64,000 nt of DNA from positions 1-64,000 of IMG/VR virus record IMGVR_UViG_3300011189_000006; one strand, written 5' to 3'. The position numbers and the translations under genes are program-made. This DNA comes from a virus. Of this stretch, positions 8,330 through 11,296 are shown piece by piece (the first letter of the stretch is position 1; every line of letters starts with the position of its first letter). Below the pieces are notes generated by a model. It worked only from the letters and a program-made list of their open reading frames with translations. It was not told where the DNA came from and searched no databases.

Positions 8330-8408
8330 AATTATATATATTAAAATATTAACACCACATTTCTAAACTTATTGTTTTAAATTAATATAATACTAAATAA
8401 CAAAAGAT

Positions 8409-8618
8409 ATGAAACTTAGAGATAATGGAATTATAACAAAGGCAGACTATATTGGCAAGACTTTGGGCGAAGCTTCTAAACATGCAGAAAATGGTGGGTA
8501 TGTGACAAGAGTGGTTAGTAACAATGGCCATTCTCCTATGTTAGATATGGATGCTAATCAGAATAGAATGAATTTTATTATTAGTAACGATAGAGTTACT
8601 GATGTATATGGTGGATAA
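8409..8618 (+). CDS. Small protein resembling the peptidase inhibitor I78/potato-I fold
   Basis: YIGKT..EA...RVV..G...MD...RMNF.....VT.V..G pattern. Confidence 0.5.
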   Translation: MKLRDNGIITKADYIGKTLGEASKHAENGGYVTRVVSNNGHSPMLDMDANQNRMNFIISNDRVTDVYGG

Positions 8619-8641
8619 TTAAAAAATAATTATAATAAAAC

Positions 8642-8672
8642 TTGTGAGAACCATTTAATAGTTTTATATTTG
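8642..8672 (+). promoter_or_regulatory. Bacteroidota-type housekeeping promoter (-33 TTG / -7 TATATTTG)
   Basis: TTG at 8642-8644, 20-nt spacer, TATATTTG at 8665-8672, upstream of the tRNA locus. Confidence 0.6.
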
Positions 8673-8742
8673 CATAGTAAAATAAATATAAGATTTTTAA
8701 AGAAAAGTATAAAGAGAGAAAATAATTTTAATATATAGAATA

Positions 8743-8841
8743 ATGAGAACAATTAACACATTTAAGCATTTTAGTAAAAAGTCGTTTTGGTTTAGTCCAA
8801 ACTCGGTAAAGAATGTTATTTGTTCTAATTTTATGATTTGA
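8743..8841 (+). CDS. Attenuator leader peptide 1 (MRTINTFKHFSKKSFWFSPNSVKNVICSNFMI)
   Basis: ATG 5 nt after TTAATATATA motif; FKHFSKKSFWF block matches downstream tRNA-Lys/Phe/His/Trp; followed by a terminator. Confidence 0.75.
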   Translation: MRTINTFKHFSKKSFWFSPNSVKNVICSNFMI

Positions 8842-8899
8842 TATAAAAATAGTAAAAAATATATTTAAAGCCGAGCTTCGAAAGAAATTCGGCTTTTTT
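8781..8899 (+). promoter_or_regulatory. Transcription attenuator 1 (anti-antiterminator / antiterminator / terminator)
   Basis: Terminator AAAGCCGAG(8867-8875)...TTCGGCTTTTTT. Leader segment CTCGGT (8802-8807) can pair with GCCGAG. TTTGG/CCAAA hairpin lies in the leader. Confidence 0.7.
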
Positions 8900-8908
8900 G
8901 TTTTATAT

Positions 8909-8982
8909 AATTCTGTAGCTCAGCTGGTTAGAGCATCTGTCTTTTAAACAGAGGGTCGTGGGTTCGAATCCCACCAGGATTA
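8909..8982 (+). tRNA. tRNA-Lys(TTT)
   Basis: Acceptor AATTCTG/CAGGATT; anticodon arm TCTGT-CTTTTAA-ACAGA; GGTTCGAATCC T-arm; no encoded CCA. Confidence 0.95.
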
Positions 8983-8987
8983 CACAT

Positions 8988-9060
8988 GGAGTAGTAGCTC
9001 AGCTGGTAGAGCACTTGGTTGAAGACCAAGGTGTCGTGGGTTCGAACCCCACCTTCTCCA
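8988..9060 (+). tRNA. tRNA-Phe(GAA)
   Basis: CTTGG-TTGAAGA-CCAAG anticodon arm; GGTTCGAACCC T-arm. Confidence 0.95.
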
Positions 9061-9071
9061 CAAGATTAAAT

Positions 9072-9145
9072 GGTGTGTGTAGCTCAGTAGGTAGAGCGTT
9101 GGCTTGTGGTGCCAAAGGTCGGGGGTTCGAAACCCCTCATACACC
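9072..9145 (+). tRNA. tRNA-His(GTG)
   Basis: G-1:C73 pair; TTGGC-TTGTGGT-GCCAA anticodon arm. Confidence 0.95.
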
Positions 9146-9154
9146 CTAAATAAT

Positions 9155-9226
9155 ACGGACGTAGTTCAAAGGCTAGAATAACGATCTCCAAAATCGTAGA
9201 TGAGATTTCGAAATTCTCCGTCCGTG
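9155..9226 (+). tRNA. tRNA-Trp(CCA)
   Basis: ACGGACG/CGTCCGT acceptor; ACGAT-CTCCAAA-ATCGT anticodon arm. Confidence 0.9.
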
Positions 9227-9257
9227 CTAGAGTTTAATAAAAATAATATATAGTATA

Positions 9258-9329
9258 ATGAAACTTATAAACACATCGAGTAGTTCAAGTCGCTTAATAA
9301 TTTCGAAAGAGATTCGATTGTGTGTGTAA
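9258..9329 (+). CDS. Attenuator leader peptide 2 (MKLINTSSSSSRLIISKEIRLCV)
   Basis: ATG 5 nt after TAATATATA; codons TCG AGT AGT TCA AGT CGC match downstream tRNA-Ser(TGA), Ser(GCT) and Arg(ACG). Confidence 0.8.
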   Translation: MKLINTSSSSSRLIISKEIRLCV

Positions 9330-9381
9330 TTATTTTTTAAAAATATTATTAGCCTTTCGAATTTATTTGAAAGGCTTTTTT
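9302..9381 (+). promoter_or_regulatory. Transcription attenuator 2
   Basis: 11-bp terminator AGCCTTTCGAA/TTTGAAAGGCT plus T6; leader TTCGAAAG (9302-9309) is perfectly complementary to terminator 5' arm CTTTCGAA (9354-9361). Confidence 0.8.
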
Positions 9382-9453
9382 AGTTCTATATTTCAACGGA
9401 TAGAATACTCGGCTACGGACCGAGAGATAGGGGTTCGAATCCTCTTAGAACTA
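9382..9453 (+). tRNA. tRNA-Arg(ACG)
   Basis: AGTTCTA/TAGAACT acceptor; CTCGG-CTACGGA-CCGAG anticodon arm. Confidence 0.9.
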
Positions 9454-9461
9454 CTAATTAT

Positions 9462-9551
9462 GGAAGATTTATCCGAAAGATTCTGGGTAGCGGAGACGGT
9501 CTTGAAAACCGTTTGCTTTAGGGCGTGTGGGTTCGAATCCCACATCTTCCG
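9462..9551 (+). tRNA. tRNA-Ser(TGA)
   Basis: GGAAGAT/ATCTTCC acceptor; ACGGT-CTTGAAA-ACCGT; long variable arm; enlarged D-loop. Confidence 0.9.
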
Positions 9552-9563
9552 CATAATTTTAAT

Positions 9564-9652
9564 GGAAGCGTACTCAATGTTGGCAAAGAGGCTGGTTTGC
9601 TAAACCAGTAGGTCTGTAAAAGGGCGAGTGGGATCGACACCCACCGTTTCCG
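9564..9652 (+). tRNA. tRNA-Ser(GCT)
   Basis: GGAAGCG/CGTTTCC acceptor; CTGGT-TTGCTAA-ACCAG; long variable arm. Confidence 0.9.
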
Positions 9653-11296
9653 CTAGTTTTTTATTAGTTCCTTTAATTCGTCTATTTGCTGTTGTAAGCT
9701 ATCTATCTTATTATTTTGCTCTTTATTCTCATTTTCCTGCTCTGCAAGTTTTAGAGATAAGAAACTATTATAATTAACAGACATCATTCCGTCATCCTCT
9801 GGTTTTTTTACAACTTCTGGATTTATCTTTTCTATTTCTTGGGCTATAGTACCATATACAGTAATCCCTGGTTGGGTTTTTAATTCATAAGAATATACTG
9901 ATTTTGATATCTTTTTAATATTGGTTTTAAGCCTTTTGTCAGAGCCTTCGAAAAAGTTATCTGCTGTAAAATCTCCACTCCAATCTAAATTTTTATCAGA
10001 TGTTAAAGCAAGCCTACCATTATTATCTACTCCAGAGTTTGATGCTAAGTGAAAATCTATATATCTTCCAATCTCCATTAATCCATCGGCACCAACATCA
10101 GGTATAAATGGCCAAGGTATATTTGCATTAGCACCTGCTATACTTAAACCATTTAAAGATGAAGCATCTACATTTGTAATCCGTGATCCATTTCCAATAA
10201 AGTTTTGTGCTGTAACATCGCCGAATGCTCTAAAATTACCCGACCCTCTACTAAATATAAACCTATTTAAAAATGAAGAGCCCGCGTCACGATATATAAT
10301 ATCAGCTCCCATATCAGCTATTAAAGTTGTTCCTGTAGCTTGGTATTTTAAATGACCTACATTACCAAAAGGTGAAGTACCACCTATTTTAAATTGAGAA
10401 TTATCGTTAATAGTTAGTGCACTTCCTGAAAAATTATCACTGGTATTGCTTCTTAAAAAATCATTACTATCTAAACTATCTAAAGTTGCAGCATCTACAT
10501 TTGTAATCTGTGATCCATTTCCAATAAAGTTTTGTGCTGTAACATCGCCATTATAATCCAAATTACCGTTTTCTCTTAAAGTTAGAGATTTGTTAGAAGC
10601 ATCATTTCGTATGCTAAGATCCGAGAACATAGTTATAGGAAATCCAATATAACCTTTGCGTGTTGTTCCGTTAGATTGATAAAATGAATAAAAAGAAGAG
10701 CTATTACTTCCTGGAAGACCTGTTTCAGTAGAACCCTTAATACCAGATCCATTTGGTATTAAAATTTTACTAGAAAAAGTCTTCTCACCATTAATAGTTT
10801 CAACTACACTTCCAGTCGCCCTAACAAAATTCGTACTATCAAAACCATCTAAAGTTTCTGCATCCGTACTTACAGAAATAATACCGTTTGAAATAATAAC
10901 TCCACTACCAATTTTTACACCTCCTAGAACTGCATCCGTTGCTGTTTGTAGGGTATAACCTACACCTGGTATCCTCTCCCAAAAAGTACCATTGTGAATA
11001 ACGTCATCTCCAACATCATATGATATAGACTTATTTCCAGAACTTCCTGAATCGTCTAAATCAGAAGTACCTGCTGTTGTAACTCTATAGTAATGTCCTT
11101 GAACGCCTGTACTATCTGCTAAAGTAGGAGTATTTGTATCTGCGTCCCAAGTGCCTTTATAAACTTGTGATGCAGATATTGGTGTCCATGTTGCGTTTCC
11201 ATCAGAGTCTGTTTTTAAAAAGTAACCATCTACTGCTCCTGATGTTAATTTAATTGTAGGTGCTTCTACGATATCTGCTATTAATTTAGTTGCCAT
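9653..11296 (-). CDS. Tail fibre protein with C-terminal intramolecular chaperone (peptidase S74)
   Basis: SDKRLKTNI...G.IAQEIE...PEVV...VNY followed by a coiled coil; DA.TLDG repeats. Confidence 0.8.
   Translation of the reverse strand: MATKLIADIVEAPTIKLTSGAVDGYFLKTDSDGNATWTPISASQVYKGTWDADTNTPTLADSTGVQGHYYRVTTAGTSDLDDSGSSGNKSISYDVGDDVIHNGTFWERIPGVGYTLQTATDAVLGGVKIGSGVIISNGIISVSTDAETLDGFDSTNFVRATGSVVETINGEKTFSSKILIPNGSGIKGSTETGLPGSNSSSFYSFYQSNGTTRKGYIGFPITMFSDLSIRNDASNKSLTLRENGNLDYNGDVTAQNFIGNGSQITNVDAATLDSLDSNDFLRSNTSDNFSGSALTINDNSQFKIGGTSPFGNVGHLKYQATGTTLIADMGADIIYRDAGSSFLNRFIFSRGSGNFRAFGDVTAQNFIGNGSRITNVDASSLNGLSIAGANANIPWPFIPDVGADGLMEIGRYIDFHLASNSGVDNNGRLALTSDKNLDWSGDFTADNFFEGSDKRLKTNIKKISKSVYSYELKTQPGITVYGTIAQEIEKINPEVVKKPEDDGMMSVNYNSFLSLKLAEQENENKEQNNKIDSLQQQIDELKELIKN

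Follow-up and report, generated by a model that had tools for sequence, protein, structure and literature searches.

A phage operon of three tRNA genes is probably gated by a ribosome-mediated (leader-peptide) transcription attenuator, as judged from the sequence of the locus and of its relatives. The window analysed here (64,000 nucleotides) makes up the first 64 kb of a contig of 91 kb from an AT-rich tailed phage (G+C ~30%); a tail tube, an SbcD-like nuclease and tail fibres are among its gene products. A search of sequencing runs found sequence of this phage in 23 DNA runs, from lake and salt-lake metagenomes, and in no RNA run. The whole contig contains only seven tRNA genes, which lie in two blocks (8909-9227 and 9382-9653). 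The 154 nt between the blocks hold, in order, the motif TAATATATA, an ATG 5 nt further on, a 23-codon ORF and a terminator hairpin (Table 1). We refer to these elements, together with the second tRNA block, as cassette 2.

A leader ORF and a terminator between two tRNA blocks

The TAATATATA motif occurs 46 times in the 91-kb genome, and 16 of the 46 copies are followed by an ATG at a distance of 4-5 nt. Twelve of these 16 sites head ORFs of at least 60 aa; examples of gene starts that have the motif and the ATG lie at 8343(-), 23521, 53774, 60938 and 62561(-). Since the order of motif, 4-5 nt and ATG is common with long genes, the leader begins in the same way as real genes of this phage. The layout suggests that TAATATATA is a phage promoter giving leaderless or near-leaderless mRNAs, and we infer from it that transcription of the leader mRNA would start at the motif. 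Downstream of the leader ORF and ahead of the tRNA, we found no sigma-70-like site on the + strand. An independent promoter 3' of 9381, which an initial annotation of this locus had named as an observation that would speak against attenuation, is excluded by geometry because tRNA-Arg already begins at 9382.

The control run of the leader can be decoded in full by the tRNAs that follow it. Under standard wobble rules (I34 reads U/C/A, U34 reads A/G and G34 reads U/C), Ser(TGA), Ser(GCT) and Arg(ACG) read all six control codons, as the initial annotation had claimed; its listing of those codons, TCG AGT AGT TCA AGT CGC with a later CGA, is also exact. Among 1,236 ATG-initiated ORFs of 10-45 codons on both strands of the 91 kb, a run of at least six codons readable by the three tRNAs occurs in just one, which is this leader. 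Further into the ORF, codon 16 is TCG and codon 20 is CGA (9315-9317). Across 67 long ORFs of the phage, TCG accounts for 3.1% of Ser codons, while CGC, CGA and AGR account for 1.2%, 3.3% and 91% of Arg codons, respectively. The earlier suggestion that TCG and CGC are unexpected in this genome holds in that both are rare, but the TCG codons 7 and 16 and the CGA codon 20 all lie inside TCGA pairing cores, so the use of these rare codons is at least partly explained by RNA structure. The later CGA is indeed present, but because it falls within the conserved antiterminator strand (region 2, below), codon sensing is no better an explanation for it than RNA pairing.

The terminator hairpin has an energy of -12.8 kcal/mol and was also found by a terminator scan. 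Its T-run had been said to end at the base before tRNA-Arg, and it does so (9381, with the tRNA beginning at 9382). For tRNA-Ser(TGA), the limits assigned by ARAGORN (9475-9552) are misplaced, and we give those from Rfam. The tRNA-Arg(ACG) reads CGU, CGC and CGA, which together make up 8.6% of the Arg codons of the phage; the cargo is thus not tuned to phage codon usage. Between cassette 2 and the sister cassette upstream of it (cassette 1), we found no terminator besides the attenuator of cassette 2. The cassette 1 leader contains Ser codons (AGT, TCG and AGT) amid its Lys, Phe, His and Trp codons, and the Ser tRNAs sit in cassette 2. An Arg/Ser cassette lies downstream of a Lys/Phe/His/Trp cassette in several other contigs too.

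Table 1. Positions of cassette features in the window, and control runs of related leaders with the tRNA genes that follow them.
Feature	Position	Strand	Description
Sister cassette 1	8729-9227	+	Same motif, leader, terminator; tRNA Lys, Phe, His, Trp
Cassette 1 leader, control run FKHFSKKSFWF	8743-8841	+	From sequence
Cassette 1 terminator	8870-8899	+	From sequence
Promoter-like motif TAATATATA	9244-9252	+	5 nt 5' of leader ATG
Leader ORF, 23 codons	9258-9329	+	ATG 9258, TAA 9327-9329; MKLINT, SSSSSR run, C-terminus EIRLCV
Control codons 7-12	9276-9293	+	TCG AGT AGT TCA AGT CGC; readable by downstream tRNAs
Region 1 (tentative)	9275-9281	+	Overlaps start of control run; partner of 9311-9317 when no ribosome is present (MFE and centroid folds)
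Segment TTCGAAAG	9302-9309	+	Exact reverse complement of 9354-9361 (CTTTCGAA); can also pair with 9366-9372
Region 2, conserved antiterminator strand GATTCGA	9311-9317	+	Ends 9 nt 5' of stop codon
Intrinsic terminator	9351-9381	+	11-bp stem 9351-9361/9366-9376, one G-U, loop TTTA, 6-T run 9376-9381
Region 3, TCGAATT	9357-9363	+	In terminator 5' arm, reaching loop edge; pairs with region 2
tRNA-Arg(ACG)	9382-9454	+	ARAGORN; Rfam 58.7 bits
tRNA-Ser(TGA)	9463-9550	+	Rfam limits; ARAGORN anticodon
tRNA-Ser(GCT)	9564-9653	+	ARAGORN and Rfam
HKHFSKSSKWF leader			Then tRNA His, Phe, Lys, Trp
SSSLSRSSR leader and many variants			Then tRNA Arg(ACG), Ser
IEAIGYAYEAG leader			Then tRNA Tyr, Glu, Ile(TAT), Gly, Ala
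PQDQDQP leader			Then tRNA Pro, Gln, Asp
NLNMNLNNTLNMVNTLCIR leader (N/L/M/T/V/C/I/R run)			Then tRNA Asn, Arg(TCT), Ile(GAT), Leu, Thr, Cys, Val
IIAKIAIGGG leader			Then tRNA Ile(TAT), Gly, Ala
KYFTFKSYKMY leader			Then tRNA Lys, Tyr, Met
HTHP leader			Then tRNA Pro, His
NKNKKNK leader			Then odd tRNA, Lys, Lys

A family of leaders and their tRNA cargo

The two leaders of this phage have the N-terminus M-K/R-x-I-N-T in common. We scanned viral contigs, metagenome contigs and two uncultured huge phages for the shared N-terminus positioned behind the motif, and extracted 46 distinct leader ORFs with the N-terminus M-K/R-T-I-N and 53 distinct cassettes. These represent at least 10 independent leader classes, from at least five viral contigs, ~40 metagenome contigs and the two huge-phage genomes (LR745206.1 and LR756502.1, 634-642 kb), which have the same scaffold. 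Using an explicit search for a hairpin followed by a T-run, we detected in all 53 cassettes a G+C-rich hairpin whose T-run comes, at most, a few bases ahead of the first tRNA; helices taken from plain MFE folds of the tails were discarded, being confounded by A-U outer pairs. Variation within the M-K/R-T-I-N N-terminus is found at wobble positions, with the Thr codon 3 being ACA or ACT and the Asn codon 5 being AAT or AAC, and we predict that the leader ORF is translated. A pattern scan of cellular genome contigs yielded no cassette and five chance matches in bacterial genes. In a phage collection, similar leaders were confined to the uncultured LR745206.1 and LR756502.1, and none came from a cultured phage. 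Going by the style of promoter and gene start, and by the hosts reportedly proposed for the huge phages, the hosts are probably lake Bacteroidota. A looser pattern was of little use; among the matches listed, most were chance MK.INT starts of ordinary genes. Two sister contigs identified by a search with neighbouring proteins are 98.5% identical to the phage and have identical leaders, and are hence uninformative as a comparative test. Among these sister contigs (L001 and L002), tRNA-Lys (8909-8983 of the window) differs in its anticodon stem by two mutually compensating changes, GT..AC to CC..GG, with both leaders unchanged.

Control runs differ between classes, and they differ together with the tRNA genes downstream. 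For one representative of each of nine classes, we counted how many of leader residues 4-22 have a tRNA for the same amino acid downstream. The count was 80 of 158, compared with a mean of 23 and a maximum of 51 when leaders and tRNA sets were re-paired in all 133,496 possible derangements; P values are optimistic, since related sequences are not independent. Because the control runs change with the tRNA cargo, and 0 of the 133,496 re-pairings is as good, we conclude that the arrangement is not due to chance. Some leaders hold residues that have no matching tRNA downstream, such as R, N, T and S in the Pro/His leader.

The agreement extends to the isoacceptor level, as had been proposed from cassette 2 by itself: codons for Arg, Ile and Ser track the cargo across classes. 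Ahead of Arg(ACG), the Arg control codon is CGY (CGC or CGT) in 15 of 15 Arg/Ser-class leaders. In the Asn/Ile/Leu class it is AGA in all four leaders, and the three complete clusters carry Arg(TCT). The Ile control codon is ATA in 5/5 cases ahead of Ile(TAT) and ATY (ATT or ATC) in 9/9 cases ahead of Ile(GAT). Both Ser boxes, TCN and AGY, are used in each of the 15 Arg/Ser leaders. Decoding the two boxes takes two isoacceptors, Ser(TGA) and Ser(GCT), and both are found in complete clusters. An apparent covariation of TCT with Ser(GGA) in L237 was rejected, as the clusters hold several Ser tRNAs that ARAGORN had missed.

Alternative helices and the position of the ribosome

Comparison within the Arg/Ser class points to a conserved helix between the leader ORF and the 5' arm of the terminator. 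In alignment A2, which comprises 15 distinct Arg/Ser-class sequences, helix 2:3 (9311-9317/9357-9363) is paired in 91.4% of cells and has two compensatory positions, with A-U replaced by G-C in six sequences and U-A replaced by C-G in five. None of 500 shuffles reached the observed value, and partners slid by 1-3 columns paired in 15-57%. The terminator helix (3:4) was kept outside this scoring, the 3' arm in the row of the window being one column off register. The end of region 2 is separated from the stop codon by 3-11 nt in 15 of 15 members of the class, a distance that a terminating ribosome would cover. All classes have, towards the 3' end of the leader ORF, a segment that resembles the terminator's 3' arm. 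Duplexes between leaders and their own 5' arms average -10.7 kcal/mol, compared with -6.9 kcal/mol for non-cognate combinations (Wilcoxon 4e-9; related sequences are not independent). A helix between regions 1 and 2 (9275-9281/9311-9317), a candidate pause or anti-antiterminator hairpin, is predicted in this phage and is not conserved in relatives; we therefore regard region 1 as tentative, and ribosome-free RNA may read through in the relatives.

We folded the RNA with and without a ribosome footprint, as the initial annotation had proposed. When no ribosome is present, both the 1:2 helix and the terminator are predicted to form. When a ribosome occupies any one of codons 7-12, 9310-9317 pairs with 9357-9364 in the nascent RNA, and with a ribosome on codons 8-10 the full-length MFE structure is a composite antiterminator, in which 9301-9307 is also paired with the 3' arm at 9366-9372. 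Region 2 is covered once the ribosome has reached the stop codon. The same pattern is seen in folds of the family: in the stalled state, the partner of the 5' arm lies within the 18 nt of ORF that precede the stop codon in all 15 members, and a ribosome at the stop codon blocks this pairing. These folds agree with the expectation that a stalled ribosome frees an antiterminator, but the helix they select is 2:3 and not the one that had been anticipated. In nearly all simulated states the terminator is the favoured structure at equilibrium, with a probability of ~0.9; the switch must thus be kinetic, as it is in classic attenuators.

The helix anticipated in the initial annotation joins 9302-9309 to 9354-9361, and its 8/8 pairing is confirmed. 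At -9.1 kcal/mol, it is stronger than any other leader-to-arm duplex in this phage, and equally good pairing with this 5' arm is seen for only 2.6% of non-cognate leaders. These properties would recommend it as the working antiterminator, in place of 9311-9317/9357-9363, within an otherwise identical attenuator. However, it is absent from 14 of 14 relatives, and nascent folds with a stalled ribosome pick the conserved helix. Moreover, a ribosome that has reached the stop codon has its footprint just downstream of 9302-9309, such that the helix is left unmasked there and could form under fast translation as well. It is therefore a poorer fit to the switching logic as sole antiterminator, a role that we consider unlikely for it. 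We suggest instead that this helix may be an auxiliary, lineage-specific reinforcement, the neighbouring helix being the conserved core. The proposal that a stalled ribosome leaves an antiterminator free thus retains its attenuator core, now with strong comparative support, but the conserved helix is 9311-9317/9357-9363.

Other readings bear on whether the leader senses codons at all. A sensor of general translation capacity or coupling, whose gate is opened by any slowing of the ribosome on the leader, would suit the folds of most relatives, in which ribosome-free nascent RNA already forms the antiterminator, such that any loss of translation would give read-through. Cargo-specific codons, distinguished down to isoacceptors (CGY versus AGA, ATA versus ATY), would not be maintained for such a general sensor, however, and we judge this reading quite improbable. 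The hairpin might also terminate constitutively and leakily, or serve 5' processing, and leave the tRNAs unregulated by translation of the ORF, with the ORF being incidental or an independent micro-gene. Terminator-like hairpins 5' of tRNA genes could be RNase sites, and the terminator wins at equilibrium across states; nevertheless, the tracking of cargo by the codon run in at least 10 classes would go unexplained, as would the covariation of the leader with the 5' arm and the fixed distance to the stop codon, which makes this a very improbable account. It is hardly credible that the RNA senses tRNA directly, in the manner of a T-box and without translation. The output does depend on tRNA identity, and the codons could be specifiers, but the leader has many different codons in one frame, a start and a stop codon, and a conserved N-terminus with wobble variation, all of which argue against direct sensing. 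We found no Rfam match to the T-box (RF00230) in 8600-9750 and no T-box motif, nor any match in the same interval to the Rfam leader families (Trp, His, Thr, Leu and Phe) at E <= 1.

Proposed mechanism and relation to known systems

In the leader-peptide attenuator that we favour, transcription would proceed from the TAATATATA motif and the short ORF would be translated almost from the 5' end of the mRNA. With Ser-tRNA(UCR), Ser-tRNA(AGY) and Arg-tRNA(CGN) plentiful, the ribosome would reach the stop codon at 9327 and cover region 2; the hairpin at 9351-9376 would then form and RNA polymerase would halt in the T-run (9377-9381). Scarcity of any of those charged tRNAs would stall the ribosome on codons 7-12 and leave region 2 free, to pair with 9357-9363 as the latter emerges, possibly with help from 9301-9309 in this phage. 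The terminator would thereby be blocked, and the Arg/Ser/Ser tRNAs would be transcribed and released by RNase P and 3' processing. The new tRNAs would speed decoding of the leader and so close the gate; since the output would feed back on the sensor, tRNA would be supplied on demand. The anatomy of the locus, the match of codons to tRNAs, the covariation of helix 2:3 and its spacing from the stop codon are seen in the sequences, and we infer the kinetic competition between helices and the direction of the response. The helix at 9302-9309/9354-9361, formable with a ribosome at the stop codon, could blunt termination in this phage. Amino-acid starvation would trip the switch too, though extra tRNA would be of no help then.

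The element would work like known leader attenuators but, with no Rfam leader or T-box family matched, is not homologous to them. Like trpL, hisL, pheL, leuL, thrL and ilvL, it combines a short ORF containing regulatory codons with a terminator and an alternative helix on the 5' arm, and its stop codon, like those of enterobacterial leaders, is placed such that a terminating ribosome would mask region 2. The sensing of several amino acids by one leader is likewise a feature of thrL and ilvL. Unlike the enterobacterial leaders, which act on biosynthetic enzymes, the phage element would regulate tRNAs, so that the decoding capacity that is sensed is also the product. The cassette also differs in being encoded by a phage, in its leaderless-like start without a Shine-Dalgarno sequence, in having no conserved 1:2 pause hairpin, and in a match that reaches the isoacceptor level. 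The pheM leader attenuator of the E. coli pheST operon, reportedly described by Springer, Fayat and colleagues in the 1980s, is another case of leader-peptide attenuation of a translation-apparatus gene for the same amino acid as the control codons, but it is a cellular system that responds to one amino acid and controls an aminoacyl-tRNA synthetase. Antitermination is also the means by which T-box riboswitches report the state of a specific tRNA and control aminoacylation genes; they differ in binding uncharged tRNA directly without a ribosome, and in having one specifier codon and a conserved T-box motif, features that are absent from the phage element.

The regulation of tRNA genes is a textbook case of growth-rate and stringent-response control, not of attenuation. 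Clusters of tRNA genes similarly occur in lytic phages (T4, T5 and huge phages), and the role proposed for such sets is to keep translation going after degradation or cleavage of host tRNAs. In the literature searchable by full text, we found no description of demand-sensing control of phage tRNA clusters, nor of leader-peptide attenuation of tRNA genes. A leader that measures the decoding speed of the codons served by its own cargo would be a direct negative-feedback controller of tRNA supply. That Arg(ACG) reads so small a share of the Arg codons of the phage speaks for a role other than codon-usage matching. It is possible, though on balance doubtful, that the cassettes constitute a modular phage family of isoacceptor-specific sensors of tRNA depletion, which would detect the loss of particular host tRNAs through ribosome stalling and answer with replacement tRNAs for just those codons, with control codons that co-evolve with the cargo and a spread from phages of ~100 kb to those of >640 kb. 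If so, the triggers could include host shut-off or an anticodon-nuclease defence. A leader that acts as such a controller would offer a testable link between phage tRNAs and depletion of host tRNAs, and would bear on why and when phages use tRNAs. The family would also be a natural set of compact, re-programmable, codon-specific sensors, with more than 10 specificities on one scaffold.

We also noted structures of other kinds near tRNA genes in several contigs. In L193 (minus strand), the gap of ~213 nt between tRNA-Trp and tRNA-Met is occupied by a G+C-rich, structured-looking RNA without a leader ORF. At L194:1518-1703, an NKNKKNK leader is followed by unusually long tRNA-like genes (~88-93 nt), the first of which has no ARAGORN assignment and scores under the Rfam cut-off. 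Nine-codon mini-leaders (MKTK.KYK.) precede three to four Lys tRNAs at L197:3776-3848, L198:3685-3755 and several metagenome loci; their hairpin is without a clear T-run, and may have a different read-out.
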